Shown: positions 2,437-62,363 of the stretch, piece after piece | How the letters are laid out: the number at the start of each line of letters is the position of its first letter | Numbering within the stretch: position 1 is the first letter of the stretch | DNA from: Bacteroidales bacterium | GTDB lineage: Bacteria; Bacteroidota; Bacteroidia; Bacteroidales; JAGOPY01 | DNA length: 64,000 bases | Direction: 5' to 3' | Assembly (NCBI GenBank): GCA_046484945.1 | Contig: JAWOHY010000026.1 | Location: forward strand, 2,073-66,072 | Program-made: the position numbers and the translations under genes | Notes under the pieces: generated by a model | What the model saw: the letters and a program-made list of their open reading frames with translations, nothing else | What the model was told of the DNA's origin: nothing | Databases searched by the model: none

Positions 2437-3105
2437 ATGAAAAAGATTGCATCAATCATCATCGTGCTGTGCTTTTTTGCCCAGGGAGGCGTAAATGCAC
2501 AGACAGAAAAGGGGAAGCTCCTGGTCGGGGTTTCCTCGCGCACCAGCTTCGGGATTTATAACTTCACCCCGTGCACACCCGACCTGATGAGTGTCGGATT
2601 CTCCACCGTAAAGTACAAGGATGACAATGGAACAGATGAGGGCAAAGACAAATTCACCAGCCTGAACATATCACCGAGGATCGGGTATTTTGTTGTAAAC
2701 AACCTCGCCCTGGGTCTGGACCTGAACCTGTCTTATCTAAATGTCGGGGATACCGAATCGGATTACAACACCCAGATCACGACCTTCACTGCCGGTCCAT
2801 TTGTCCGTTATTACATTCCCACAGGCAAAGTCAAACCCTTCGTGGAAGCAGGAGGCGCTTTCGGCAACCTGGTGTATAAATGGGATGGATGGGAAGGCGA
2901 GGAGGAGAAGATGAAACATAGCCTTACAATGTTCAATGGCGGCGTAGGCCTGGCGGTGCCCATCGGCAGCCGAGCCAGCTTCGACACCATGATCAGCTAC
3001 AACTCCCTAACGATCAAGGAAAAAGAGGACAACCCCGAAAACTCCAGGGAAATAATCGGAACTTTTGGCATAAGGTTCGGTTTAACTGTATCTCTCGGAG
3101 AATAA
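2437..3105 (+). CDS. Outer-membrane beta-barrel protein (small porin / OmpW-like family)
   Basis: ORF 2383..3105. ATG 2437 gives the signal peptide MKKIASIIIVLCFFAQGGVNA. The rest shows an alternating amphipathic strand pattern rich in G/Y/F. A terminator hairpin lies downstream. Confidence 0.65.
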   Translation: MKKIASIIIVLCFFAQGGVNAQTEKGKLLVGVSSRTSFGIYNFTPCTPDLMSVGFSTVKYKDDNGTDEGKDKFTSLNISPRIGYFVVNNLALGLDLNLSYLNVGDTESDYNTQITTFTAGPFVRYYIPTGKVKPFVEAGGAFGNLVYKWDGWEGEEEKMKHSLTMFNGGVGLAVPIGSRASFDTMISYNSLTIKEKEDNPENSREIIGTFGIRFGLTVSLGE

Positions 3106-7252: not shown

Positions 7253-9787
7253 ATGGAAGCAAAATTTTCGCAACGGGTCAAGCATGTTCTAACTCACAGC
7301 CGGGAAGAGGCTGTCAGGCTTGGTAATAATTATATTGGCCCGGAGCATTTACTGCTTGGTATTTTGCGGGAGGCTGACGGACTTGCCTTTCATCTCATAA
7401 AGTACTTCGGACTTGATCCGGGTGATTTGAAGGCCATGATTGAAAAGGCCGTGGCAACTGACGGCGTATTCACAGGAAATCCTGATAACATTCCCCTGGT
7501 CAAGCAAGCGGAAAGGGCTTTGAAAATTACTTATCTGGAAGCCAAGATATTCAACAGTGAGCTGATCGGCACCGAGCATCTTTTGCTTTCTATTTTAAGG
7601 GATGAGGACAATATTGTGACAAGATATTTTGAACGGAATGGTATCGATTATGATACGGCAAAAGAGGAATTAAAGAAGATATTAAAAGAAAAGAAAGCCG
7701 GTGAGCGGGTAGATCCCACATTTGATCTCCCCGGCGATGCGGCTGATGAGGAGGCGGAAGAGGCAGGCAGGAGTTATGGCAGTTCCACAAGACGCCCGGT
7801 AGAGAGCAAGTCCAAGACCCCCGTCCTGGATAATTTCGGAAGAGATATCACCAAAGCCGCCGAAGACGGACGTCTGGATCCTATCGTAGGGAGGGAAAAG
7901 GAACTGGAACGGATTGCGCAGATCCTCAGCCGCCGGAAGAAGAACAACCCTGTCCTCATCGGCGAGCCCGGTGTGGGTAAATCGGCCATTGCCGAAGGCC
8001 TGGCCGAACGGATCGTCAACAGAAAAGTATCCAGGGCCTTGTTCGATAAGCGGATCATTGCCCTTGACCTGGCCTCGCTGGTGGCCGGGACAAAATATCG
8101 CGGACAGTTTGAAGAACGGATGAAAGCCGTGCTCAACGAACTGGAAAAAAATCCCGATATCATCTTATTCATAGACGAGATTCACACCATTGTCGGCGCC
8201 GGCAATGCTTCCGGTTCGCTCGACGCCTCCAATATGTTCAAACCCGCCCTGGCAAGAGGTGAAATTCAGTGCATCGGCGCAACCACGCTCGATGAATACC
8301 GGCAATATATAGAAAAGGACGGCGCCCTGGAGAGAAGGTTTCAAAAGGTCCTGGTCGATCCTACCACACCCGAGGAAACGCACCAGATACTAAGCAATAT
8401 CAAAGAAAAATACGAAGACCATCACCTGGTTACGTATTCCGACGAAGCCATTCATGCCTGCGTCCAGCTGACCAATCGTTACATCACCGACCGGTATCTC
8501 CCGGACAAGGCCATTGATGCACTCGATGAAGCGGGTGCAAGGGTCCATATTACCAATATCCATGTCCCCTCGGAAATCATCAGCATTGAAAACCGTATCG
8601 AGGAGATCCGGCAAAAGAAGACCCAGGCCATTAACAGCCAGAAATTTGAAGAAGCCGCCGAATACCGCGATATTGAGCGGAAATTGCAGGATAGCCTGAA
8701 TGCCGCCAAGAAAAAGTGGGAAGAGGAATCCAAAGTGAACCGGGAACTGGTCAGCGAAGATAATGTTGCTGAAGTCATTGCCATGATGACAGGTATACCC
8801 GTTCAGCGGATTGCCAGAAATGAAGGAAACCGACTTGTTCATATGGAGGAAGAACTGGCCGGCAGTGTGATCGGACAGGATGATCCGATCAAAAAGATCG
8901 TCAAATCCATCAGAAGGAACCGCGCCGGGTTGAAAGACCCCAGGAAGCCAATTGGTTCCTTTATTTTCCTTGGCCCCACCGGCGTTGGGAAAACCCACCT
9001 GGCCAAAGTGCTGGCCAAATATCTCTTCGACTCTGAAGATGCCCTCGTGCGTGTCGACATGAGTGAATATATGGAAAAGTTTGCAGTTTCGCGACTTGTC
9101 GGCGCCCCTCCGGGATATGTGGGCTACGAAGAAGGGGGGCAATTGACCGAGAAAGTCAGAAGAAAACCTTACTCCATTGTACTGCTTGATGAAATTGAAA
9201 AAGCACATCCCGACGTTTTCCATCTGCTGCTGCAGGTCCTGGATGATGGCGTGCTGACCGATAGCCTGGGACGTAAAGTCGATTTCAAGAATACCATTAT
9301 CATCATGACTTCCAACATTGGCTCGCGCCAGTTGAAAGACTTCGGGGAAGGAATTGGCTTCTCTACCGCGGCCAAACGCACCTCAAAGGCTAATTTTGCC
9401 AGGGGTGTCATCGAAAATGCCCTGAAAAAAACATTTGCCCCTGAATTCCTCAACCGGGTTGATGATGTGGTCATCTTCGACTCCCTTGAGCTGGAAGATA
9501 TCCACAAGATCATCGATATTGAATTGAAGGATGTGTTCAAGCGGGTAGAAGAACTCGGCTTTACAGTCAAACTCAGCGATGAAGCCAAAGCATTTATTGT
9601 TGAGAAAGGATGGGATGCCCAGTTTGGCGCCAGGCCCCTTAAAAGAGCCATCCAGAAATATTTTGAAGACCCCCTGGCCGAGGAGATCATCAAGTCGAAA
9701 ATATTGCCGGGCGATATCATTGTCATGGATTTTGACAGTGAATCGAGTGAAATAAAGCTCGAGATTCAGAAAGCCCCGAAAGAATAA
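7253..9787 (+). CDS. clpC: ATP-dependent Clp protease ATP-binding subunit ClpC (class I AAA+ chaperone)
   Basis: 844 aa. Has a duplicated Clp_N repeat, Walker A motifs GEPGVGKS and GPTGVGKT, and a UVR-like linker QKFEEAAEYRDIERKL. Confidence 0.9.
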   Translation: MEAKFSQRVKHVLTHSREEAVRLGNNYIGPEHLLLGILREADGLAFHLIKYFGLDPGDLKAMIEKAVATDGVFTGNPDNIPLVKQAERALKITYLEAKIFNSELIGTEHLLLSILRDEDNIVTRYFERNGIDYDTAKEELKKILKEKKAGERVDPTFDLPGDAADEEAEEAGRSYGSSTRRPVESKSKTPVLDNFGRDITKAAEDGRLDPIVGREKELERIAQILSRRKKNNPVLIGEPGVGKSAIAEGLAERIVNRKVSRALFDKRIIALDLASLVAGTKYRGQFEERMKAVLNELEKNPDIILFIDEIHTIVGAGNASGSLDASNMFKPALARGEIQCIGATTLDEYRQYIEKDGALERRFQKVLVDPTTPEETHQILSNIKEKYEDHHLVTYSDEAIHACVQLTNRYITDRYLPDKAIDALDEAGARVHITNIHVPSEIISIENRIEEIRQKKTQAINSQKFEEAAEYRDIERKLQDSLNAAKKKWEEESKVNRELVSEDNVAEVIAMMTGIPVQRIARNEGNRLVHMEEELAGSVIGQDDPIKKIVKSIRRNRAGLKDPRKPIGSFIFLGPTGVGKTHLAKVLAKYLFDSEDALVRVDMSEYMEKFAVSRLVGAPPGYVGYEEGGQLTEKVRRKPYSIVLLDEIEKAHPDVFHLLLQVLDDGVLTDSLGRKVDFKNTIIIMTSNIGSRQLKDFGEGIGFSTAAKRTSKANFARGVIENALKKTFAPEFLNRVDDVVIFDSLELEDIHKIIDIELKDVFKRVEELGFTVKLSDEAKAFIVEKGWDAQFGARPLKRAIQKYFEDPLAEEIIKSKILPGDIIVMDFDSESSEIKLEIQKAPKE

Positions 9788-9802
9788 CCAAATATTTGGC
9801 TA

Positions 9803-11587
9803 ATGGAATACAGCAAAAATTTGACAGGAGGCGATTTCCTGATCAATGAAGTCAGCGCTAAAGACATTTTTATTCCGGAAGAATTCAACGAGGAACAGAA
9901 AATGATCTCCCAGACCTGTGAAGATTTTCTTGAATCGGAAGTTTTTCCGATGCTTGACAGGATTGACAAGCAGGAGCTTGGGCTGATGCCGAAACTGCTT
10001 GGCAAAGCAGGAGAATTGGGATTGCTGGCCATCTCCATACCGGAGGAATATGAGGGTTTCGGGCAGTCGTTTCTGACCGCCATGCGTGCCAACGAATCGC
10101 TGGGGGCAGGGTATTCATTCACAGTGGCTTATTCTGCACATGTTGGTATCGGAACAATGCCTATCGTTTATTACGGTAACGAAGCACAAAAACAAAAATA
10201 TCTTCCCAGGCTGGCTACCGGGGAATGGATTGCTGCTTATTGCCTTACTGAGCCCAATGCCGGTTCGGATGCCAACTCAGGCAGGACGAAGGCTACCTTA
10301 TCGGACGACGGCATGCATTATATCCTGAATGGCCAGAAAATGTGGATTACCAACGGGGGATTTGCCGATACGCTGATCGTTTTTGCCAAGATCGATAACG
10401 ACAGGGTATTGAGTGCATTCATCGTGGAAAGCAACCTTCCCGGCATCAGTATGAACCCGGAAGAGAACAAGATGGGCATCAAAGGGTCATCTACCCGCCA
10501 GATATTTTTCAATGATGTAAAGGTTCCGGCAGAAAACCTGCTGGGAAAGCGTGGGGAAGGATTTCGAATCGCACTGAACATCCTGCACATGGGAAGGATC
10601 AAGTTGGGCGGCATTGTGCTGGGGGCGGCCAAGCGCGCCATCAACCAGTCGGTCAATTATGCCAACGAAAGAAAACAGTTCGGTTCGCTCCTGTCGAGTT
10701 TCGGGGCGATCAAGTCCAAGCTGGCAGAGCAGGTGATCAGGACATTTACCAATGAATCAGCGGTTTACAGGACCAGCAAGAACATTGAAGAGGCGGCTAA
10801 ATTAAACCTGGCGGCCGGAATGGAAAAAGGGAAAGCCGAAATAGATGCGATTGCGAAATTCTCCGTAGAGTGTGCCATGTTAAAGGTATTCGGCTCGGAG
10901 GCGCTCGATTATGTTGTTGACGAAGCGGTCCAGATCTATGGCGGGATGGGTTATTCGGCGGAGGCGCCGGTTGACAGGGCGTATCGTGATTCCAGGATCA
11001 ACAGGATATTTGAAGGGACCAATGAAATTAACCGGCTGCTGGCAGCCGATACAGCCATTAAGAAGGCGCAGAAGGGTGATTTCGACCTATTTACCAACGC
11101 AAAGGCGGTTTTTGAATCCATTGATTCACTGGAAGATATTATCCCGGAGTTTCCTGGTTACTATGAAGAAAAGGCCCATTATATCCAGAATATGAAGAAG
11201 GCTGTATTGCTTGTCATTTATGCTTTTTCCGAAAGATTCAGAAAGAATCTGATCAACGAGCAGGAGATCATGATGAATGTTTCCGAAATGATGATGCAGC
11301 TATATGCGGCAGAGTCTACCCTTTTACGTGTTCAGAAAATGCATAAAACAACGGACGATAAGCACATCAGTATTTATCAGGACATCCTGGACATATTTAT
11401 TTATGATGCGGCTGCCAGGATCATGAAATCGGGAAAAGATGCGCTCGGTGCCATTGAGGAGGGCGATCTGCTGGTCCGGCTGAACCAGGCCATCGAGATT
11501 TTTACCCGCGTAGCCCCTGTCAATGTAGTAGATGCCCGCCGCCGAATCGCCGACAGGCTGATATACGACAACCGTTATACTTTCTGA
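9803..11587 (+). CDS. Acyl-CoA dehydrogenase, long (about 590 aa) form with C-terminal extension
   Basis: Contains CLTEPNAGSDA, the ACAD middle and C-terminal domains (YGGMGY, IFEGTNEINR), and an extra helical domain of about 150 aa. Confidence 0.88.
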   Translation: MEYSKNLTGGDFLINEVSAKDIFIPEEFNEEQKMISQTCEDFLESEVFPMLDRIDKQELGLMPKLLGKAGELGLLAISIPEEYEGFGQSFLTAMRANESLGAGYSFTVAYSAHVGIGTMPIVYYGNEAQKQKYLPRLATGEWIAAYCLTEPNAGSDANSGRTKATLSDDGMHYILNGQKMWITNGGFADTLIVFAKIDNDRVLSAFIVESNLPGISMNPEENKMGIKGSSTRQIFFNDVKVPAENLLGKRGEGFRIALNILHMGRIKLGGIVLGAAKRAINQSVNYANERKQFGSLLSSFGAIKSKLAEQVIRTFTNESAVYRTSKNIEEAAKLNLAAGMEKGKAEIDAIAKFSVECAMLKVFGSEALDYVVDEAVQIYGGMGYSAEAPVDRAYRDSRINRIFEGTNEINRLLAADTAIKKAQKGDFDLFTNAKAVFESIDSLEDIIPEFPGYYEEKAHYIQNMKKAVLLVIYAFSERFRKNLINEQEIMMNVSEMMMQLYAAESTLLRVQKMHKTTDDKHISIYQDILDIFIYDAAARIMKSGKDALGAIEEGDLLVRLNQAIEIFTRVAPVNVVDARRRIADRLIYDNRYTF

Positions 11588-35857: not shown

Positions 35858-36505
35858 ATGCATCATCTTCATGAAATATTGGCATCGCTTCCCTCCCATG
35901 TCAGGCTGGTCGTGGTTTCCAAGACGATACAGCCCGATGTGCTGATGGAAGTGTACCGTTCGGGCCACCGGGCATTCGGTGAGAACCGGGCGCAGGAACT
36001 GATCACCAAGCAGCCATTGCTTCCACCTGACATTCAATGGCATTTCATCGGTCATCTGCAAACGAACAAAGTGAAATATATCGCCCCCTTCGTCGAAATG
36101 ATCGAGTCGGTGGATTCATTGAAATTATTGAAGGAAATTAACAAGGAAGCGGCAAAGAACGACAGGGTGATCAAATGCCTGCTGCAATTCCATATTGCCG
36201 AGGAAGAGACCAAATATGGCCTTGACATGCAGGAGGCGAAAGATATCCTGACCTGCCCGGACTTTTCTGCAATGAAAAATATCATCATTTGCGGTGTGAT
36301 GGGCATGGCGACATTCACCGATGAAGCGGACCAGGTGCGGCAGGAGTTCCGGAAACTGAAAAAGAACTTTGATGAATTGAAAGACAAGTACTTCCCTGAC
36401 GATCCGTCATTTTGCGAAATCAGCATGGGCATGTCGGGCGATTATCAGATTGCAGTGGAAGAAGGCAGCACGATGGTCCGCATCGGAAGCGCAATCTTTC
36501 ATTAG
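35858..36505 (+). CDS. yggS: YggS-family pyridoxal-phosphate homeostasis protein
   Basis: 215 aa. Contains VSKT (PLP lysine), FGENRAQE, WHFIGHLQTNK and SMGMSGDY. Confidence 0.92.
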   Translation: MHHLHEILASLPSHVRLVVVSKTIQPDVLMEVYRSGHRAFGENRAQELITKQPLLPPDIQWHFIGHLQTNKVKYIAPFVEMIESVDSLKLLKEINKEAAKNDRVIKCLLQFHIAEEETKYGLDMQEAKDILTCPDFSAMKNIIICGVMGMATFTDEADQVRQEFRKLKKNFDELKDKYFPDDPSFCEISMGMSGDYQIAVEEGSTMVRIGSAIFH

Positions 36506-36538
36506 TTCAAAGTTCAAAAGGCAAAGTTCAAAGTTGAG
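36504..36538. repeat. Tandem heptamer array (AGTTCAA) x5
   Basis: agttcaa agttcaa aaggcaa agttcaa agttgag. The first unit overlaps the yggS TAG stop (36503-36505). Confidence 0.85.
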
Positions 36539-36567
36539 TAATTCAGTTTATAGTTTATAATCGAACA

Positions 36568-36606
36568 CTTACCGTCCTACCGTCTTACAGTCTTAAAGTT
36601 TTACAG
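36568..36606. repeat. Tandem octamer array (CTTACCGT) x5
   Basis: cttaccgt cctaccgt cttacagt cttaaagt tttacag. The last units encode the galK C-terminus and its stop (minus strand, 36593-36595). Confidence 0.85.
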
Positions 36607-37789
36607 CCCCAACCCCCTCTCCTATTTCAGGCAAATAGAATTCCGCTGCCAATTTTGTTCTGTTGGAATATTCTTCCTTCACTTTCTTTAAAAAGTCCTC
36701 CAGGCACTCTTCCCTCACAAATGCTACAGCGCAGCCGCCGAAACCGGCGCCGGTCATTCGGGCTCCAGGGACTCCATCCCGGCTCATCATGCTTTCCACC
36801 AGGGCGTCCAGCTCGTGGCCGGTGACTTCATAATCGTCGCGCAGAGACTGATGGGATTCCGTCATGAGCCTGCCGAGCTGTTCCAAATCGCTGTTCATCA
36901 AGGCTTTCACCGCTTCCAGGACTCGCTTGTTCTCCGAAACGACATGCCGTGCCCTTTTTAACGCCACCGGGTCTTTGATCAGGCGCTGGGCTTCCAGGAA
37001 CTGCTCCATGCCGAGTTCCCCCAGGGAACCAATTGCAAAAGTTTTGGAAAGATAATCCAGCGCCTTCCGGCATTCGGCCACTCTTTCGTTGTATTTTGAA
37101 TCGGCCAGGCCACGCTTTTTATTCGTGTTGGCAATCACCAGCCGGTAACCCGGAAATCTGGCCGGCACATGATGGTAGGCCAGCGTGCCGCAATTCAGGA
37201 AAATGGCATGGTCCTTTTTACCGTGCCCCACCGCGAACTGGTCCATGATGCCGCAATTCACCCCGACAAATTCATTTTCAGCCTTTCTGGATAAATGGAC
37301 CAGGTCCGTGACATCCAGGTTCCAGCCGAACATATCGTTCAGGGCAAAGGCGGTAACCATTTCAATGGAAGCTGAAGAGGAAAGGCCGGCTGCCGGTGGG
37401 ATATTGCCTGAGAAAAACAGCTCCAGCCCAGGGGTTTCCAACCCTGGGGTTTCCAACCCCAGGGTTGGAAACCCTCTTTGCCGGAACATTTGGATCACCC
37501 CCAGGGGATAATTGATCCAACTGTCGCTGTGCCTGGTGTAGTGATCCTTGACAGGTATCTCTGCCGTTTCATCGAAATTGGAGCTTCTGAACCGGATCAC
37601 CGGATCGCTTATCCTGCGAACTGCCAAGTGCGTGCCGAAACTCAGCGCGCAGGGCAAAACAAAGCCATTGTTGTAATCGGTGTGCTCGCCGATGAGATTG
37701 ACGCGGCCGGGGGCGAAGTAACAATGAATTCCTTTGCTGCTGCCTCCATAGGCATTTAAGAAACTGTCCTTCAAGTTACCAATAATCAT
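36593..37789 (-). CDS. galK: Galactokinase, carrying an in-frame GLETP repeat insertion
   Basis: 398 aa. Contains the galactokinase signature GRVNLIGEHTDYN, the GHMP motif PPAAGLSSSAS, and C-terminal MTGAGFGGC. The segment GLETPGLETPGLE precedes the GHMP motif. Confidence 0.93.
   Translation of the reverse strand: MIIGNLKDSFLNAYGGSSKGIHCYFAPGRVNLIGEHTDYNNGFVLPCALSFGTHLAVRRISDPVIRFRSSNFDETAEIPVKDHYTRHSDSWINYPLGVIQMFRQRGFPTLGLETPGLETPGLELFFSGNIPPAAGLSSSASIEMVTAFALNDMFGWNLDVTDLVHLSRKAENEFVGVNCGIMDQFAVGHGKKDHAIFLNCGTLAYHHVPARFPGYRLVIANTNKKRGLADSKYNERVAECRKALDYLSKTFAIGSLGELGMEQFLEAQRLIKDPVALKRARHVVSENKRVLEAVKALMNSDLEQLGRLMTESHQSLRDDYEVTGHELDALVESMMSRDGVPGARMTGAGFGGCAVAFVREECLEDFLKKVKEEYSNRTKLAAEFYLPEIGEGVGAVKL
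37427..37474. repeat. In-frame 15-bp tandem repeat plus perfect 13-bp inverted repeat inside galK
   Basis: cccaggggtttccaa / ccctggggtttccaa / ccccagggttggaaaccc. GGGTTTCCAACCC (37447-37459) is the exact reverse complement of GGGTTGGAAACCC (37462-37474). Confidence 0.9.
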
Positions 37790-38762: not shown

Positions 38763-38787
38763 CAGGAGACAGGAGACAGGAGACAGT
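38763..38787. repeat. Tandem heptamer (CAGGAGA) x3 just downstream of tRNA-Arg
   Basis: caggaga caggaga caggaga cagt. Confidence 0.8.
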
Positions 38788-38812
38788 CAATAGTAAGGTT
38801 GGCTGTTTTTTT

Positions 38813-38820
38813 TATCTTTG
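38813..38820 (+). promoter_or_regulatory. Bacteroidota -7 promoter box (alpha/beta hydrolase gene)
   Basis: TATCTTTG, 8 nt upstream of ATG 38829, implying a very short leader. Confidence 0.35.
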
Positions 38821-38828
38821 GTATCATA

Positions 38829-39830
38829 ATGGAAAAAATTCAGAGCAAGCCTATAATTGCGCTCCATATCATTCACGGTATGATGGAGCATTCGGCACGC
38901 TACGAACCATTTGCAGCGTGGCTGGCAAGCCGGGGCATTGCAGTTTATATGGCCGATCTGCCGGGGCATGGAACAGCGGCCGCCAGCCAGGATGAGCTGG
39001 GGCATATTGCTGTCGATAATGGGTGGGATGAGATACTGGAATCGGTCAGAAAGCAGCAGGATCAGATCAGGGCCGCTCATCCCGGACTGCCTGTCGTGAT
39101 GCTGGGGCATAGCTTCGGTTCGATCGTTGCCCGAAGTTTTGTACAATGCTATGCCCGGGACTACCCGTTGCATGGATTGATCCTATCGGGGGCCATGCAG
39201 CTGCCGGCAGCGCTTTTAAAGACCGGGCTCGGGCTGGCTGCCTTGCAGAAAACAGCGTATGGCATCCGGCACCGGTCCAGACTGATGATCGCCCTGGGCC
39301 ATGGGCAGTACGCGAAACATTTTTCTCCCAAACGAACCGGGTTCGACTGGCTGTCATCCAACCCGGCCGTAGTCGACGCCTACCTGGCCGACCCGCTGTG
39401 CGGTTATGCCTGCACCCTGGGGTACTATACCAATTTCTTCCACGCACTGCTGGATACCTGGAAGTGTATAAATATTCACAAAATGCCTCCTGGTATGCCG
39501 GTGCTGTTCATGGGCGGCCAAAGCGATCCGGCCATCCGTTTCGGTAAGGATACGCATATGCTTGCGACAAAATATCAACTGTGCGGTGTCAGGCGGGTAG
39601 AGATCAAACTTTGGGAAAACGGCCGGCACGAGATGCTGAATGAATTGAACAGGGAGGAGGTTTGGCAGTTTGTCCTGGATTTTGTTTTGTTCCAGAGTTC
39701 CAGGGTTTCAGGGTTCCAGGGTTCCAAAGTTCCAGGGTTCCAAAGTTTCAGGGTTCCAGGGTTTCAGGGTTCCAGGGTTCCAGGGTTCCAAAGTTTCAGG
39801 GTTCCAGAGTTCCAGGAGTCAATTGAATGA
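38829..39830 (+). CDS. Alpha/beta hydrolase (lysophospholipase / monoacylglycerol-lipase-like) with a repeat-encoded C-terminal tail
   Basis: ORF 38799..39830. ATG 38829 lies just after a TAnnTTTG box. Contains HGMMEHSARY and the nucleophile elbow GHSFGS. The last 45 aa or so (SRVSGFQGSKVPGFQSFRVPGFQ...) are translated from the 8-bp tandem array. Confidence 0.8.
   Translation: MEKIQSKPIIALHIIHGMMEHSARYEPFAAWLASRGIAVYMADLPGHGTAAASQDELGHIAVDNGWDEILESVRKQQDQIRAAHPGLPVVMLGHSFGSIVARSFVQCYARDYPLHGLILSGAMQLPAALLKTGLGLAALQKTAYGIRHRSRLMIALGHGQYAKHFSPKRTGFDWLSSNPAVVDAYLADPLCGYACTLGYYTNFFHALLDTWKCINIHKMPPGMPVLFMGGQSDPAIRFGKDTHMLATKYQLCGVRRVEIKLWENGRHEMLNELNREEVWQFVLDFVLFQSSRVSGFQGSKVPGFQSFRVPGFQGSRVPGFQSFRVPEFQESIE
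39689..39816. repeat. Tandem octamer array (GTTYCARR) x16
   Basis: 16 contiguous 8-bp units (gttccagg / gtttcagg / gttccaaa / gttccaga). There is no TAA, TAG or TGA in any plus-strand frame. Confidence 0.95.
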
Positions 39831-39986
39831 CCACCGTCGTATGACAACTGTATGACAACCGTATGACAACCGTATGACAACTGTATGACAACCGTATGAC
39901 AACCGTATGACAACCGTATGACAACTGTATGACCACCGTATGACAACCGTATGACAACTGTATGACCACCGTATGACAACCGTATG
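39827..39986. repeat. Tandem 11-bp array (GTATGACAACY) x14, each unit holding an ATG and a TGA
   Basis: ATGs at 39827 and at 39841 + 11n up to 39984. Each unit reads ATG ACA ACY GTA TGA, with the TGA overlapping the next ATG. Confidence 0.95.
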
Positions 39987-40568
39987 ACAGATTACACTAA
40001 AATAATCCACAGGTATTATCCACCAGGCACGCTGCGACATCAGATCTATGTGCCCCATTGCCAGGCAGTAAGGGATCTTGCGCTTTCAATTGCCAGGGCG
40101 AATCCGGCCCTGGGAGCCGATCCTGCGATCCTGGAGGCGGGAGCGATGCTGCACGATATCGGCATTTTCATGACCGATGCGCCTGAGATCGGCTGCCACG
40201 GAGACCTCCCCTACCTGGCGCATGGGTACAAAGGACGTGAGCTGCTGGAGAAAGAAGGGCTGCCTGAGATCGCCCCGGTGTGCGAGCGGCATATCGGGGT
40301 GGGGATCACGGTACAGGATATTTTAAACCGAAACCTGCCGCTTCCTCACCGGGATATGACACCGCAGACGCTCGAAGAAAAGATCATATGCTATGCCGAT
40401 AAATTTTTCTCCAAGTCAGCCACTGACCTTCTCAAACCAAAGCCGCTGAAAAAGGTTAAAAAAAGCATCAGCAAATACGGAGAGGATAAATGGCAGATCT
40501 TTGAAGAAATGATGGCGCTGTTCGGCCTGGACCAGGTTTACTCAAACACCAGCTCACCGTCAAGGTAA
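39984..40568 (+). CDS. HD-domain phosphohydrolase
   Basis: 194 aa. Contains H...HDIG (MLHDIGIF) and downstream metal ligands (ERHIGVG, YADK). The ATG is the last unit of the 11-bp array. Confidence 0.8.
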   Translation: MTDYTKIIHRYYPPGTLRHQIYVPHCQAVRDLALSIARANPALGADPAILEAGAMLHDIGIFMTDAPEIGCHGDLPYLAHGYKGRELLEKEGLPEIAPVCERHIGVGITVQDILNRNLPLPHRDMTPQTLEEKIICYADKFFSKSATDLLKPKPLKKVKKSISKYGEDKWQIFEEMMALFGLDQVYSNTSSPSR

Positions 40569-42175
40569 GTCTTTAAAACGCTGACTCCCGGTATTTCCTC
40601 CGGGGGGATCTCCATGATATCCCTGTCAAGGATCACGAAATCGGCGAATTTCCCTGGCTCGATGCTTCCCTTGATGTCTTCTTCGAAACTCCCTTTCGCG
40701 GCCCAGATGGTCATGGAACGCAGCGCTTCTTCCCGGCTGATGGCGTTTTCCATCTGAAATCCGCCTTCGGGGTAACCCTGCCTGTCCTGCCTGGCTATTG
40801 CTGCGTGAAAAGTATACAGTGGATTGATCTCTTCCACGGGAAAATCAGTGCCGTTCACCAGCCAGCCGTTTTCTTCCAGCAGTTGCTTATAAGCATAAGC
40901 ACCCTTGATACGCCCGGGTCCCAGACGGTCTTCCGCCCAGTACATATCCGACGTACAATGTGTGCTTTGGATCGAAGGAATGATGCTGTATTTTCCGAAA
41001 AGCGCAAAGTCATCAGGATGGATCACCTGTGCATGCTCAATCCGCCAGCGACGGTCGTTGGGCTCCTTCAGCACATGACCATACAAATTGAGCATCAGCC
41101 GGTTGGCTGCATCGCCTATGCAGTGGGTGTTCACCTGGAAATTCTTTTCATAGGCCTTCTCCAGGATGCCGCGGAAATATTCCTTTGAAGACATCAGCAG
41201 TCCCCGGTTTGCCGGATCGTCGGAATAAGGCTCCAGGAGCCAGGCGCCACGGGAACCCAGGGCGCCATCCGTATACAGTTTGATGGAATTCACCGTCAGC
41301 CGTTCTTTCTGGAACGGCCCTTTATCGACAAATTCTGACAGGTTCCGGTCGGTCGGACTGAGCATGGCATTCACCCGCATCCGCAGTTTTCCGGCTATCT
41401 GCAATGAATCAATCAGCATGACCGTTTCATAATCGAGCCCGGCATCCACCACCGACGTGAGTCCCACGGCAAAGCATGCTTGCTGGGCTTCGGTCAGTGC
41501 ATCGGCCTTTAACAAAGCCTCCGGCTCCGGGATGACCGCTTTCAGCAAGCCGGCTGCTTGATCGATCAGGATCCCTGTCGGCTTTCCATCTTTCAACAGC
41601 ACCTCTCCCCCATCCACTTTGGTATCAGCTGTGATACCGGCGCGTCGCAATGCCTCGCTGTTGGCCAGCACCGCGTGTCCGTCGACCCGTGTCAGGACCA
41701 CCGGATTCTCCGGAAAGAGTTTATCCAGCAAGGCATTGTCCGGAAACTCCTTCACCACCCAGTCGTTCTGGTCCCATCCCCTGCCCAGGATCCAGACATA
41801 CGGATGCGTTTCATGATAATTCCGCAGCACCTGCAACACATCTTCAAAGGAGGCCGTCCCTCTCAGGTCAACCGACTGGTTTCGACCCAATGCGTAACCG
41901 TAAAAGTGGCAATGCCCGTCAATAAAGCCCGGGTAAACAGCCTTGCCGCCGGCATCGATCACCAGGTCGGCGGTGTATTTACTGGTGATCTCTTCCGTGG
42001 CGCCTGTTGCCAGGATAAGGCCATCGCGCATGGCAAATGCTTGTGCGACTGAAAATTCATCATCGACGGTATAAACGATTCCATTGACCAGGATCTGGTC
42101 GGCTTTCTCTTTCATACTGCATCCGGATATAATGAAAAACAATAAAAACAGGGAAACAATCGGCAGGTATTTCAT
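40538..42175 (-). CDS. Amidohydrolase-family metallo-dependent hydrolase (YtcJ-like), lipoprotein
   Basis: 545 aa. Has a lipobox ISGC, the metal motif DGHCHF, and the later motifs HCIGD, EHAQ and GTDFPVE. Confidence 0.85.
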   Translation of the reverse strand: MKYLPIVSLFLLFFIISGCSMKEKADQILVNGIVYTVDDEFSVAQAFAMRDGLILATGATEEITSKYTADLVIDAGGKAVYPGFIDGHCHFYGYALGRNQSVDLRGTASFEDVLQVLRNYHETHPYVWILGRGWDQNDWVVKEFPDNALLDKLFPENPVVLTRVDGHAVLANSEALRRAGITADTKVDGGEVLLKDGKPTGILIDQAAGLLKAVIPEPEALLKADALTEAQQACFAVGLTSVVDAGLDYETVMLIDSLQIAGKLRMRVNAMLSPTDRNLSEFVDKGPFQKERLTVNSIKLYTDGALGSRGAWLLEPYSDDPANRGLLMSSKEYFRGILEKAYEKNFQVNTHCIGDAANRLMLNLYGHVLKEPNDRRWRIEHAQVIHPDDFALFGKYSIIPSIQSTHCTSDMYWAEDRLGPGRIKGAYAYKQLLEENGWLVNGTDFPVEEINPLYTFHAAIARQDRQGYPEGGFQMENAISREEALRSMTIWAAKGSFEEDIKGSIEPGKFADFVILDRDIMEIPPEEIPGVSVLKTYLDGELVFE

Positions 42176-42267
42176 AACAGGGGATAATTAATTATATTTC
42201 GAACAAAATTAAGAAAAGCCTGTTAATTAAAATCTATTTAACAACCGGCATAATGTTAAAACCTTGT

Positions 42268-42275
42268 TATATTTG
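42268..42275 (+). promoter_or_regulatory. Bacteroidota -7 promoter box (DUF6580-like gene)
   Basis: TATATTTG, 24 nt upstream of ATG 42300. Confidence 0.4.
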
Positions 42276-42299: not shown

Positions 42300-42854
42300 A
42301 TGAATAAGAAATACGCCCAGACCAGCCTGATAGTTATCATTTCCATTATCATTTCCGGGGCATTGTTCCGGTTCATCCCCCACTGGCCAAACTTCACGCC
42401 CATTGCAGCCATGGCTCTGTTTGGCGGCGCTTACCTGGGAAGGAAATATCTTGCTTTCATCATCCCGTTTGCTGCCATGTTCCTCAGCGACCTGCTCCTG
42501 GGATTTCATACCGGTATGTGGGCTGTTTACCTGGCCTTTGGGATAACGGTGATGATCGGCACGCTCATCCGGAAAAATCCGCGTTTTGCCAGCATATTTG
42601 GCGCTTCGTTAGCCTCCTCTGTGATCTTCTTCCTGCTGACCAATTTCGCCGCCTGGCTGGCCAGTCCGTTCTACCCGCCTACCCTTGCCGGTCTGATGCA
42701 ATCTTATATAGCCGGGCTCGCCTTCTTCCATAACGGATCGCTGGGGATTTCCTTTTTCATCAATGAAGTCGCCGGCACCCTCTTCTACAGCGGTATCTTC
42801 TTCGGCGCCTATGCCATGGCACGCCAGTGGATGCCGGCGGTGAATGGTCGTTAG
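42300..42854 (+). CDS. Integral membrane protein (DUF6580-like)
   Basis: ORF 42264..42854. ATG 42300 follows a TAnnTTTG box at 42268. About 5-6 TM helices, with an N-terminus of the form FRFIPHWPNFTPIAAMALFGG. Confidence 0.55.
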   Translation: MNKKYAQTSLIVIISIIISGALFRFIPHWPNFTPIAAMALFGGAYLGRKYLAFIIPFAAMFLSDLLLGFHTGMWAVYLAFGITVMIGTLIRKNPRFASIFGASLASSVIFFLLTNFAAWLASPFYPPTLAGLMQSYIAGLAFFHNGSLGISFFINEVAGTLFYSGIFFGAYAMARQWMPAVNGR

Positions 42855-42904
42855 GTATTGGGTATTAGGTATTAGGTATTAGGTAATGGGGTATTGGGGT
42901 ATTG
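42855..42904. repeat. Tandem 7/8-mer array (GGTATTR) x7
   Basis: Starts directly after TAG 42852-42854: gtattgg gtattag gtattag gtattag gtaatgg ggtattgg ggtattg. Confidence 0.88.
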
Positions 42905-42920
42905 CGTTTTATTACTCATC

Positions 42921-42955
42921 TTCTGACTTCTATATTCTATCTTCTATCTTCTCCT
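42921..42955. repeat. Tandem heptamer array (TTCTATC) x5
   Basis: ttctgac ttctata ttctatc ttctatc ttctcct. Confidence 0.85.
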
Positions 42956-46888: not shown

Positions 46889-46893
46889 CGAAA

Positions 46894-46928
46894 AGGTTTA
46901 AGGTTTAAGGTTTAAGGTTCAAGGTTTA
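46894..46928. repeat. Tandem heptamer array (AGGTTTA) x5
   Basis: aggttta aggttta aggttta aggttca aggttta. Confidence 0.9.
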
Positions 46929-46930
46929 AG

Positions 46931-46954
46931 TGTTCGATGTTCAATGCTTCGATG
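46931..46954. repeat. Short tandem repeat (TGTTCRA) x3 containing the candidate start codons of the EEP gene
   Basis: tgttcga tgttcaa tgcttcga tg. ATG 46937 and ATG 46952 span unit junctions. Confidence 0.75.
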
Positions 46955-48058: not shown

Positions 48059-50100
48059 TGGACTTCAAGCTGATATCTGATTTTTCACCTACCGGCGACC
48101 AGCCGGATGCCATCCGGCAGTTGGTGGAAGGTTTGAACCGTGGGGACGAGGCGCAGGTCCTGCTGGGTGTAACAGGTTCCGGAAAAACCTTCACTGTCGC
48201 CAATGTTATCACACAGGTGAACCGGCCCACCCTGGTGCTGAGCCATAACAAAACGCTGGCGGCACAGCTCTATGGTGAGTTTAAACAGTTTTTCCCCGAT
48301 AATGCCGTTGAATATTTCGTATCGTATTATGACTATTACCAGCCTGAGGCTTATTTGCCGGTAACAAACACTTATATTGAAAAGGATCTTTCGATCAATG
48401 ATGAGATCGAAAAGCTCCGGCTGAGCACTTCATCATCCTTATTATCAGGCAGAAGGGATGTGATCGTGGTATCATCTGTTTCCTGTATTTTCGGCATTGG
48501 CAACCCTGATGACTTTACCAGCAATGTTGTCAGGGTGAAGGTTGGCGACCGGCTGAGCCGCAACCGGCTGCTCTATTCGCTGGTGGATGCCCTGTATTCC
48601 AGGACGGAGACCGATTTTGGCAGGGGCCGGTTCCGTGTCAGGGGCGACAGTGTTGATATTTTCCCGGCCTACACCGACTTTGCATACCGTATCATCTTTT
48701 TTGGCGATGAGATCGAAAGCATCGAGTCGTTCAACCCGCTCAACGGCTTTCGCCTGGATCAGCACAGCGGGGTCACCATATTCCCGGCCAATATTTTTGT
48801 CACCTCACAGGATAAAATGAAAGAGGCATTACGGGAGATTGAGGAAGATGCCTGGAAACAGGCGGCATACTTCAGGGAAACAGGCAAGGTGTTGGAAGCC
48901 AAGCGGCTGGAGGAACGGGTGGCCTATGATGTGGAGATGATGCGGGAGCTGGGCTACTGCTCCGGCATCGAGAACTACTCGCGGTATTTTGATGGCCGGG
49001 CGCCAGGTACGCGGCCGTTCTGCCTGATGGACTATTTCCCGGATGACTACCTGCTGGTGATCGACGAGAGCCATGTGACCATCCCGCAGATCAGGGCGAT
49101 GTACGGCGGCGACCGTTCCCGCAAACAAACCCTGGTAGAATATGGATTCAGGCTGCCTTCGGCACTGGATAACAGGCCGTTGAAATTCGACGAGTTTGAA
49201 TCGATCGTCAGCCAGGTGATCTTTGTCAGCGCCACCCCTGCCGACTACGAGCTGCAGAAAACGGGCGGGGTGGTGGTTGACCAGCTGATCCGACCCACCG
49301 GCCTGCTGGATCCCGTCATCGAGATCAGGCCCAGCCAGACCCAGATCGATGACCTGCTGGATGAAATCGACCGGACGGTGAAAAAAGGGAGCCGGGTGCT
49401 GGTAACCACGCTCACGAAAAGGATGGCAGAGGAACTGACCAAATACCTCGGCCGGTTGAATGTAAAGAGCCGTTACATTCATGCAGAGGTTGAAACGCTG
49501 CAAAGGGTGGAGATCATGCGCGACCTGCGGCTGGGGGAATTCGATGTGCTGGTTGGGGTGAACCTGCTCCGGGAGGGGCTTGACCTGCCCGAAGTGTCGC
49601 TGGTGGCCATCCTGGATGCCGACAAAGAAGGCTTTTTACGATCGGAACGGTCGCTGACCCAAACCGCAGGCAGGGCCGCCAGGAACATCGACAGCCGGGT
49701 GATCATGTACGCCGATAAGATCACCGATTCGATGCGGAAGACCATCGATGAAACCAACCGGAGACGGGAAAAACAACTGGCTCATAACATAGCCCATAAC
49801 ATCACTCCCACTCCAATTATCAAAACGGTCGAAAATATCCTGGGGCAAACCGCCGTGGCCGATTCCAGGAAGAAAGAACCTCAGCCATACATTGAAAAGC
49901 AAAAAACCGACATCGCTGCCGATCCTGTTTTAGGGTACATGACAGATGAACAACTCACCAAATCCATAGCGGACCTGCGAAAGGAAATTGAGAAAACGGT
50001 GAAAGAACTCGACTTTGTCAATGCAGCCAAACTGAGAGACGAAATGTATGCCCTGGAAGATTATCTGAAAGAGAGAAACGCTGATAAAAGAGAAAAGTGA
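48058..50100 (+). CDS. uvrB: Excinuclease ABC subunit B
   Basis: 680 aa. Contains GDQP, Walker A GVTGSGKT, helicase motifs, and the C-terminal UVR domain (AAKLRDEM). Its ATG overlaps the upstream TAA by 1 nt. Confidence 0.97.
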   Translation: MDFKLISDFSPTGDQPDAIRQLVEGLNRGDEAQVLLGVTGSGKTFTVANVITQVNRPTLVLSHNKTLAAQLYGEFKQFFPDNAVEYFVSYYDYYQPEAYLPVTNTYIEKDLSINDEIEKLRLSTSSSLLSGRRDVIVVSSVSCIFGIGNPDDFTSNVVRVKVGDRLSRNRLLYSLVDALYSRTETDFGRGRFRVRGDSVDIFPAYTDFAYRIIFFGDEIESIESFNPLNGFRLDQHSGVTIFPANIFVTSQDKMKEALREIEEDAWKQAAYFRETGKVLEAKRLEERVAYDVEMMRELGYCSGIENYSRYFDGRAPGTRPFCLMDYFPDDYLLVIDESHVTIPQIRAMYGGDRSRKQTLVEYGFRLPSALDNRPLKFDEFESIVSQVIFVSATPADYELQKTGGVVVDQLIRPTGLLDPVIEIRPSQTQIDDLLDEIDRTVKKGSRVLVTTLTKRMAEELTKYLGRLNVKSRYIHAEVETLQRVEIMRDLRLGEFDVLVGVNLLREGLDLPEVSLVAILDADKEGFLRSERSLTQTAGRAARNIDSRVIMYADKITDSMRKTIDETNRRREKQLAHNIAHNITPTPIIKTVENILGQTAVADSRKKEPQPYIEKQKTDIAADPVLGYMTDEQLTKSIADLRKEIEKTVKELDFVNAAKLRDEMYALEDYLKERNADKREK

Positions 50101-50113
50101 AAAGAGAAAAGTG
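50086..50113. repeat. Direct 14-bp duplication AAAAGAGAAAAGTG x2 bridging the uvrB stop and the cysQ start region
   Basis: Copy 1 is 50086-50099 and copy 2 is 50100-50113. The uvrB TGA (50098-50100) spans the junction. GTG 50111 lies in copy 2. Confidence 0.9.
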
Positions 50114-50119
50114 AATGTT

Positions 50120-54457: not shown

Positions 54458-54555
54458 CTCTGTGGTTCTCCGTGCCTTCTCTGTGGTTCTCCGTGTAATT
54501 TTTTATTTCACGGAGTAACACGGAGGAGACACTGAGGGGCACGGAGTTTTTTTTT
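54458..54555 (+). terminator. Long imperfect hairpin built from CTCYGTG words, followed by a T-run; probable ndk terminator and member of a palindromic element family
   Basis: The left arm ctctgtggttctccgtgccttctctgtggttctccgtg pairs imperfectly with cacggagtaacacggaggagacactgaggggcacggag. The loop-proximal stem CTCCGTG/CACGGAG is perfect. TTTTTTTTT follows at 54547-54555. Confidence 0.6.
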
Positions 54556-62269: not shown

Positions 62270-62363
62270 GCCACAAAAACACCAAATCACCAACTTACAC
62301 CAAAAGTTGAAAATCAAAATATTAACACATTAGAGTTCTTTAGTGTTTTTGTGCTTTTGTGGC
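62270..62363. repeat. Palindromic element of the CACAAAA-word type
   Basis: GCCACAAAA (62270-62278) pairs with TTTTGTGGC (62355-62363). The internal cacaaaaacac is the reverse complement of gtgtttttgtg (62343-62353). An A-run follows. Confidence 0.7.

Follow-up and report, generated by a model that had tools for sequence, protein, structure and literature searches.

A ladder of overlapping start-stop mini-open reading frames at a hydrolase/HD-domain gene junction of a Bacteroidales bacterium is one locus of a dispersed, hypervariable tandem-repeat family

The DNA analysed here is a window of 64,000 nucleotides from contig JAWOHY010000026.1 of a Bacteroidales bacterium (GCA_046484945.1). It contains an alpha/beta-hydrolase gene followed on the same strand by an HD-domain gene, and between them lies a ladder of fourteen mini-open reading frames (mini-ORFs) in which the stop codon of each overlaps the start codon of the next in the motif ATGA. 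This ladder was found to be one locus of a dispersed, hypervariable family of 10/11-bp tandem repeats. The explanation that we favour, with moderate confidence, is that the ladder is a tolerated by-product of this slippage-prone repeat, which probably lowers translation of the HD gene according to the number of units, and not a relay built for that purpose. The junction is composed of the following features.

38799..39830, + strand: alpha/beta-hydrolase ORF (Hydrolase_4), with its stop TGA (39828-39830) inside the first ATGA
39689..39816, + strand: 8-bp tandem array, sixteen copies of GTTCCAGG
39817..39826, + strand: edge sequence AGTCAATTGA, containing CAATTG, a hexamer that also bounds GTATGAC arrays on the left at unrelated loci, where it recurs
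39827..39844, + strand: first mini-ORF, ATG ACC ACC GTC GTA TGA (MTTVV), a 14-nt unit whose ATG overlaps the hydrolase stop
39841..39987, + strand: thirteen 11-nt MTTV units, ATGAC[A/C]AC[C/T]GT; the reverse strand is open in all frames
39984..40568, + strand: HD-domain (HDIG/TIGR00295-like) gene, the start of which, ATGACA, is a truncated last array unit

A preliminary description of the sequence had placed ATG codons at 39827 and at 39841 + 11n, the last one being the HD start. Indexing of every ATG confirmed this arrangement, with ATGA motifs at 39827 and at 39841 + 11n for n = 0 to 13 (39841 to 39984), and no ATG besides the 15 of the ladder and the HD gene was present between 39780 and 40010. 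Splitting of the stretch resolved 14 units, ATGACCACCGTCGT first and then the thirteen 11-nt ones, whose products are MTTVV once and MTTV thirteen times. As described before, the hydrolase stop lies inside the first ATGA, the closing TGA of each mini-ORF shares bases with the following ATG and the last of these stops falls on the HD ATG. The TRF program gave the 11-bp array a score of 262, a period of 11, 13.8 copies and 91% matches, and a two-unit pattern matched 13 times in the window against 0.22 expected from shuffled sequences: the ladder is real and far beyond chance. It lies between the hydrolase stop and the HD start, outside both ORFs, and 157 nt separate the first ATG, on the hydrolase stop, from the HD ATG. 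The layout is that of an upstream-ORF or minigene leader, with fourteen ORFs of 4-5 codons and a final stop overlapping the HD ATG.

TGA recurs in all three frames of the ladder with a spacing of at most 14 nt, and the 8-bp array upstream has no stop in any + frame (39689-39816), both in agreement with the earlier proposal. Its extension, that a ribosome arriving in any frame would terminate inside an ATGA, needs a small correction, the frame-2 stop at 39824 being located in TTGA. In folding comparisons with shuffled sequence, the array RNA came out as the less stable (z = +1.5 and +2.6), and position -3 of every ladder AUG is C, not the favoured A. A known RNA was rejected as a candidate, the Rfam 15 covariance models having given no match at E <= 1 over 39500-40200.

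The fate of the junction in relatives was analysed on loci collected through homologues of the HD protein, members of the HD cluster and contig look-ups, all junctions being aligned together. The exact look-up of the window HD protein gave no match, and cluster members were taken instead; the closest named records are metagenome-assembled genomes (MAGs) of uncultured Bacteroidales. The following states were observed, HD identities being relative to the window.

L090 (HD identity 93%): 13 ladder units, 3 of them ATAA, preceded by 4 copies of the 8-bp unit
L092 (HD identity 93%): 15 ladder units, 2 of them ATAA
L001 and L093 (HD identity 86%): 6 ladder units, preceded by about 5 copies of the 8-bp unit
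L002, L003 and L010 (HD identity 86-89%): short 7-bp array GTTTCNN, 40-nt spacer, then ATGACAGAT; no ladder
L004 (GCA_964489545.1; HD identity 75%), fully syntenic: no arrays; direct ATGA overlap of both genes
L158 (HD identity 71%), syntenic: GAAATTA and TGGAAC-type arrays fill the spacer; no ladder

The polymorphism of unit number that had been predicted for relatives was found, the series at this junction being 6, 13, 14 and 15 units, plus the ladder-free states. With the same flanks and register, the ladder is present in five independent assemblies (NCBI, three from ENA, and JGI) and is therefore real; the exact unit numbers are those of short-read assemblies, and the Logan contig L091 breaks off inside the array. 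In the ATAA units, the preceding mini-ORF is still closed (TAA) and the restart codon is lost, leaving an 11-nt gap. The chain of -4 overlaps from the hydrolase through the ladder to the HD gene, described as unbroken, is so in the window and in L001 but is broken in the L090 and L092 alleles. A stop (TGA or TAA) is kept in 48/48 units of the four distinct alleles of the HD locus (window, L092, L090 and L001). The junction is hypervariable and the ladder is dispensable in close relatives; these comparisons showed that arrays have accumulated at this site in several lineages, making it a hotspot, whereas an outgroup has just the ATGA overlap. In this outgroup, L004, the hydrolase gene (9045..10004) encodes an array-free orthologue of 319 residues and overlaps the HD gene (10001..10591), and the sequences compared suggest that the ancestral junction was probably an ATGA overlap of this kind.

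Some junctions of relatives showed further peculiarities. In L158, about 12 TGGAAC-type units occupy 2960-3093, TGGAAC being the reverse complement of GTTCCA, the core of the window 8-bp unit, and the gene caller extended the HD ORF through these units (P0062, N-terminus MEPWNFGTWNIGTLE...). The first 540 nt of L010 (1-540), a contig of the KA21 MAG, look mosaic: the 3' part of the hydrolase gene is 93% identical to the window, but from the junction into the 5' end of the HD gene the contig is L002-like, which could be the result of recombination near the repeat hotspot or of a chimeric assembly. In L016 (4326-4500) and L017 (1-60), labelled Bacteroidetes and Lentimicrobiaceae, respectively, and with HD proteins about 51% identical, heptamer arrays (CAGTTGG x13.6 and AAATCCT x7.7) reach the HD start and their last units resemble the first HD codons, ATGAATCCGTGAATCCC.

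The repeat family was delineated by one metagenome scan with the 27-nt pattern ATGACNACNGTATGACNACNGTATGAC, gene calls in the retrieved loci being crude and ORF-based. The pattern was matched in 64 contigs, among which only L145, the contig of L001, holds the HD locus; the other contigs are alike with the window only within the array itself. The consensus of the family unit is GTATGAC[A/C/T]AC[C/T], periods of 10 and 11 bp are mixed within arrays, and L136, L153 and L154 each carry 2-3 separate arrays. A left edge, CAATTG[T/A]ATGAC, was recognised, CAATTG lying at most 25 nt from the first unit in 16/65 arrays, the window's GTCAATTGAATGACC among them. Inverted arrays are joined at the perfect palindrome GTCATACAATTGTATGAC in L098 and L113, and a GC-rich module of about 18 nt (GCGAGGCGAAGCCGAGC-like) stands between ATGAC units in L099, L110, L130, L139 and L095, the presence of this module in arrays from different contigs hinting at a composite repeat element. 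The copy number is unstable at another locus too: five samples of an aminotransferase locus gave 4, 6, 8, 23 and 26 units. When the units imposed by the search pattern are set aside, T2, C5 and A7 of the unit are conserved at 0.93-0.98 against 0.80-0.84 for A1, G3 and A4, and positions 6 and 9 are the most variable.

A search across genomes for ATGA-containing arrays abutting start codons had been suggested, and these contigs showed no clear bias of that kind: some 26 arrays point towards the start of a downstream gene, and some 33 adjoin the end of a gene on the opposite strand, often 3-30 nt from its stop. Inspection by eye showed an array inverted between two co-directional genes in L101, a membrane-protein gene of L097 that runs into an inverted array and gains a YGGHTVVMR tail, and, in L154, arrays placed 4 nt past the stop codon of each of two genes, the encoded C-termini of which resemble sorting domains of type IX secretion. 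The downstream genes have no common function, as judged by eye from the sequences without domain search. In a separate observation on L095, L103, L153, L154 and L116, GTATGACC arrays follow the stop of genes ending in ...GSAKFVVVR (for example L154 1591-1775 and 5330-5440), a putative sorting domain of the same type by its sequence. A conserved GC-rich hairpin, CACGCCTACGGCGTG or CACACCTACGGTGTG, bounds these arrays on the far side, and the repeat-plus-hairpin module recurs at several loci.

Six of the contigs (L103, L097, L101, L108, L127 and L154) have tetranucleotide profiles correlated with that of the window at r = 0.90-0.94, compared with 0.89-0.94 for true orthologous relatives, and come from two metagenomes, Ga0209498 and Ga0114946, the L001 allele being present in the latter as well. 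The GC content of the 64 hits extends from 30 to 69%; contigs at 30-35% GC must belong to different taxa, and a few high-GC hits may be chance matches. Short arrays, mostly of heptamers, reach a density of 6.7 per 10 kb in the carrier contigs, compared with 2.66 in the window and a median of 0.89 in the loci collected up to that point. A phage or plasmid origin was rejected, no match to the repeat being found in viral contigs, and Rfam detected only tRNAs in 11 family loci. The unit strings were not found in the literature searched, in which the GTATGAC family, its edge and its spread appear to be undescribed.

Transcription of the hydrolase and HD genes as one unit, also put forward in the preliminary description, is plausible from motif scans. 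The octamer TAnnTTTG is a -7 promoter motif of Bacteroidota; it occurs 53 times in the window against 39 expected, many copies lying directly 5' of ORF starts, and one such copy precedes the hydrolase gene.

38813..38820, + strand: TATCTTTG, Bacteroidota -7 promoter-like motif just 5' of the likely hydrolase start

The rule used for ORF calling placed the hydrolase start at TTG 38799, but the ATG at 38829, 9 nt past this motif, is the more likely start. On the + strand, the motif scan found no TAnnTTTG from 38821 to 42267, the next one being at 42268, and a scan for terminator-like sites or hairpins between the two genes found none; it is the absence of both from these scans that makes co-transcription plausible. 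A scan for sigma-70-type promoters gave nothing above shuffled sequences. In the hydrolase ORF, the Pfam Hydrolase_4 match (E = 3e-40) extends up to residue 283 of 343, and the final 45 residues or so, beyond the match, are the translated 8-bp array, so that the length of this array changes only a tail past the domain. The HD ORF, opened by the 15th ATG (39984), encodes 194 residues, and its N-terminus aligns with homologues from residue 1.

If the ladder is a tolerated by-product, the following course of events can be proposed. The family would fill short intergenic spacers, in either orientation, in repeat-rich uncultured Bacteroidales, and an array in ATGAC-forward orientation would have occupied the ancestral 4-nt ATGA overlap in register with the HD start. 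The HD gene's own ATGACA start, present in ladder-less relatives, probably set the register only. The simpler alternative of the preliminary description, an amplified copy of the HD start junction, has to be amended in this sense: the unit itself belongs to a dispersed family with a CAATTG edge. Slippage would then have driven expansion and contraction to 6, 13, 14 and 15 units. The array would survive because every forward unit has a stop two bases after its ATG and stops occur in all frames: with each unit closing itself after four codons, the hydrolase always terminates and no extended or out-of-frame product enters the HD gene. Direct coupling would thereby be replaced by an unstructured leader of 66-165 nt with 6-15 decoy start-stop mini-ORFs, and HD synthesis would depend on serial reinitiation, on internal initiation at the last AUG, or on both. 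We infer that the decoy ORFs probably uncouple and lower HD translation in a length-dependent manner, as a by-product rheostat. Termination-reinitiation coupling drops steeply with distance, a spacer of about 20 nt nearly abolishing it in tested systems (PMC10666635); Bacteroidetes do without Shine-Dalgarno use and have AUG depleted near start codons (PMC6847099, PMC7797042); peptidyl-tRNA drop-off is frequent on very short ORFs (PMC2490762, PMC10192219). Together with the low structure of the array, these properties lead one to expect a net lowering of HD translation.

Several observations weigh against this explanation. The register is exact at both ends of the array in all four distinct alleles, and wherever the hydrolase end is assembled (window, L090 and L001/L093) it falls on the first ATGA despite differing lengths of the 8-bp array, an outcome with a chance of about 1 in 9 were the frames unconstrained. 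The sole variant inside ATGA, ATAA, retains the stop. ATGA is intact in 92% of units in forward arrays against 81% in reverse ones, and stops in 98% against 92%, a difference that is weak and confounded because units are not independent and the same loci recur. Moreover, the array has been kept across about 17% nucleotide divergence of the HD gene. As to the family itself, the 64-kb window holds only this GTATGAC array, the other arrays are on contigs unlinked to the window, and some of the 64 hits come from other taxa or may be convergent or chance matches.

A selected relay or attenuator, in which ribosomes that have finished the hydrolase or entered at any one of the AUGs hop from ATGA to ATGA, the unit number sets the amount of HD protein and slippage provides heritable tuning, would account for the exact register at both ends, the stops that are always kept, the hydrolase ending on the first ATGA and the slightly higher, though confounded, ATGA integrity of forward arrays (92% versus 81%). 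It is also consistent with the unbroken chain in the window and L001, the unstructured array RNA, the plausible co-transcription and an ancestral ATGA-coupled junction. We nevertheless consider it unlikely. The three ATAA units of L090 and the two of L092 are 11-nt gaps without a restart codon, and L002, L010, L004 and L158 have no ladder. The same repeat also occurs in non-coding orientation and at gene 3' ends, with no ATGA on the mRNA, about half of the arrays being oppositely oriented. Within the unit, ATGA is not the best-conserved part, positions 5 and 7 being better conserved, and the variation at positions 6 and 9, 'synonymous' in MTTV, is equally typical of reverse-oriented arrays. 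Any loss at one step would be compounded over fourteen serial steps, peptidyl-tRNA tends to drop off during translation of very short ORFs (PMC2490762, PMC10192219), and Bacteroidetes generally avoid AUGs near starts (PMC6847099). The dedicated frame-resetting relay suggested at the outset is not upheld by these results. Selection on the MTTV peptide was rejected for a related reason: the window varies only at third codon positions (6 and 9), yet these positions are the most variable ones family-wide, reverse arrays included, which indicates a family property and not a synonymous constraint.

A more far-reaching idea, which we regard as doubtful, is that the GTATGAC[N]AC[N] family is spread by a sequence-specific mechanism and that forward arrays at operon junctions turn a fixed 4-nt coupling into heritable, copy-number-tunable ladders setting the ratio of two proteins. 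The shared CAATTG or palindromic edge and the interspersed GC-rich module are a hint of such a spread. Were this true, nature would already have supplied a test series, in the alleles of 0, 6, 13, 14 and 15 units and in the presence or absence of ATAA breaks among them, for the behaviour of post-termination ribosomes without Shine-Dalgarno sequences.

The array might instead act at the DNA level, its direct repeats of 10-11 bp, about one helical turn, and the palindromic edge GTCATACAATTGTATGAC serving as phased sites for a protein, which could be a regulator, a nucleoid protein, or a recombinase or transposase that also spreads the family. The mixture of 10- and 11-bp periods, the enriched CAATTG edge (16/65 arrays), the perfect palindrome at which inverted arrays meet in L098 and L113, and the presence of the unit at many loci whatever the direction of transcription are compatible with this. 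On the reverse strand, the unit contains TGTCATA at 11-bp spacing, a possible likeness to OmpR/PhoB-type operators. However, the flanking genes share no function by eye, arrays are at 3' ends as often as at 5' ends, the copy number is unstable (3 to 26) and no candidate protein emerged from the analysis; the 7- and 8-bp units of other arrays nearby in these genomes are unrelated, which points to a general slippage tendency rather than to one binding protein. Binding at the DNA level is consequently judged improbable. Its more specific form, a Pho box or other response-regulator operator of the OmpR/PhoB type, was rejected: the downstream proteins, aminotransferase-, dehydratase-, recombinase- and cyclophilin-like by eye, have no common theme, and the occurrence of arrays in both orientations and at 3' ends does not suit a regulon with operators of fixed orientation.

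An action at the RNA level has similarly little probability. The A/C-rich, G-poor and unstructured repeat could be an enhancer-like landing pad for the ribosome or S1, a site for an RNA regulator or a Rho-loading site by which transcription is tied to translation. The array indeed folds less stably than shuffled sequences, initiation in Bacteroidetes is tuned by low structure and upstream sequence (PMC6847099), and MacGregor (2015) proposed regulator binding for heptamer repeats directly 5' of starts (PMC4679880). Both orientations of the repeat occur, however, so that the transcribed sequence differs between loci, and each AUG is preceded at -3 by C rather than by the favoured A (PMC6847099). 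Finally, that the array or its length results from short-read mis-assembly is extremely unlikely: one Logan contig ends within it and arrays of 140-170 bp are near the read length, but five independent assemblies agree on flanks and register and internal variant units give each allele a unique order.

Two other origins or associations were tried and rejected. The hydrolase 3' end of L004, ...CGTAACAACTCGAACCGCTCATGA, resembles the unit, but the score of this resemblance was reached by 441/5000 shuffles and by 7% of real 51-nt windows, and birth of the unit from that end was not retained. A special link between arrays and the HD gene was not retained either, the presence of an array at most 300 nt upstream in 12/76 distant loci, against 4.1 at random positions, reflecting a general intergenic enrichment.

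The GTATGAC ladder belongs to the dispersed intergenic short tandem repeats with units of 5-11 nt, of the LSSR, STRR and TAACTGA type. The STRR heptamers of Cyanobacteria are a similar repeat class. The nearest example of the kind is the TAACTGA heptamer of Beggiatoaceae, Cyanobacteria and five Bacteroidetes (MacGregor 2015, PMC4679880), a short tandem unit at many intergenic loci which, read forward, closes all three frames, often reaches or adjoins a start codon or shares bases with an upstream stop, varies by whole-unit indels between strains, and is accompanied by downstream genes without common function and by no nearby Shine-Dalgarno sequence. The GTATGAC unit differs by its length of 10-11 nt, its sequence, its content of both a start and a stop, which creates mini-ORFs, and its recurrent CAATTG edge; the strong forward bias directly upstream of start codons seen for TAACTGA in 'Maribeggiatoa' (PMC4679880) was not clearly apparent for GTATGAC arrays. 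For LSSR with units of 5-11 nt (Mrazek et al. 2007), the account given in PMC4679880 mentions a genome-wide excess of intergenic arrays of 7-11 nt, put down to polymerase slippage, and the exclusion from coding regions of units that are not a multiple of three, both in line with the present arrays. Unlike LSSR and STRR, GTATGAC arrays are found in uncultured Bacteroidales, and one 11-mer family extends across contigs and apparently across taxa of differing GC content.

Gene pairs coupled by ATGA or TGATG (Huber et al. 2019, PMC6728339; 2023, PMC10666635) correspond exactly to the arrangement of the same two genes in L004, and each step of the ladder is an ATGA overlap. In the window, however, the genes are 157 nt apart, a distance that nearly abolishes coupling in tested systems, and some ladder alleles break the chain; lacking the overlap of -4/-1 nt, the window genes are not a termination-reinitiation coupled pair. 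The serial ATGA ladder of fourteen four-codon ORFs is an emergent configuration and, as far as found in the literature, undescribed. With simple-sequence contingency loci (PMC11868660, PMC12721329), the ladder shares a hypermutable unit number near the 5' region of a gene, and intergenic repeats can modulate expression (PMC11868660, PMC12721329). Here, by contrast, the array is flanked by a stop and a start, every frame through it is closed and there is no ON/OFF frameshift logic, and neither the hydrolase nor the HD protein looks like a product of a surface or host-interaction gene; with no frame or promoter-spacing switch, it is not a classical contingency locus. The tandem repeats of Borgs (Schoelmerich et al. 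2023, PMC9879509) are reported to be pervasive, fast-evolving, located between genes and at gene ends, and to add disordered tails to proteins, as does the 8-bp array to the hydrolase. Borg repeat regions arise independently (PMC9879509), whereas one unit is found here at many loci, and the host here is a bacterial chromosome. Toxic or regulatory minigenes such as lambda bar and axe-txe (PMC2490762, PMC8708949) are likewise very short, with 2-8 codons, and when translated they can tie up tRNA or affect the expression of a gene downstream; the ladder has fourteen predicted ORFs in tandem, each overlapping the next.

If the ladder is a by-product, it indicates that the translational coupling of an ancestral junction can be lost in a repeat-rich genome while both genes go on working, and that only units with their own stop can expand at such a junction. 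If unit number tunes HD output, the ladder would represent a new and simple heritable rheostat of expression. It would then also provide a natural setting in which to ask whether ribosomes scan or reinitiate at once after termination, a disputed matter (PMC10666635, PMC7538156), in Bacteroidota, which choose the start without the aid of Shine-Dalgarno sequences and normally avoid AUGs in its vicinity (PMC6847099). For annotation, such arrays matter since gene callers run ORFs through them, as seen for the hydrolase tail, the false N-terminus of P0062 and the YGGHTVVMR tail of L097.

Other intergenic spacers of the window contain tandem arrays of 7-8 bp (1651-1739, 36504-36606, 38763-38786, 42851-42952, 46893-46954 and 50086-50115), often with two different units side by side, and the orthologous spacers of L090 and L093 have other units or copy numbers. 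Some of these arrays take in the stop of a neighbouring gene: the TAG that ends the DUF6580 gene at 42852 is part of a TTAGGTA array, the galK stop on the minus strand belongs to CTTACAGT and the uvrB TGA to AAAAGTG. Within the galactokinase gene, an in-frame 15-bp repeat (37422-37464) encodes TLGLETPGLETPGLE, the window protein having 398 residues and its L004 orthologue 389. A small RNA match, Acido-Lenti-1 of Rfam, was obtained at 382-427 with 43.6 bits (gathering score 37). At 62270-62363, a pair of inverted arrays (CACCAAA and TTTTGTG types) has 24-nt arms that are 83% complementary and is followed by an A run. At 54458-54546, inverted arrays of CTCCGTG and CACGGAG types can pair into an imperfect hairpin of 42 nt, 74% complementary and with a T run behind it, a putative terminator-like structure made of repeats.

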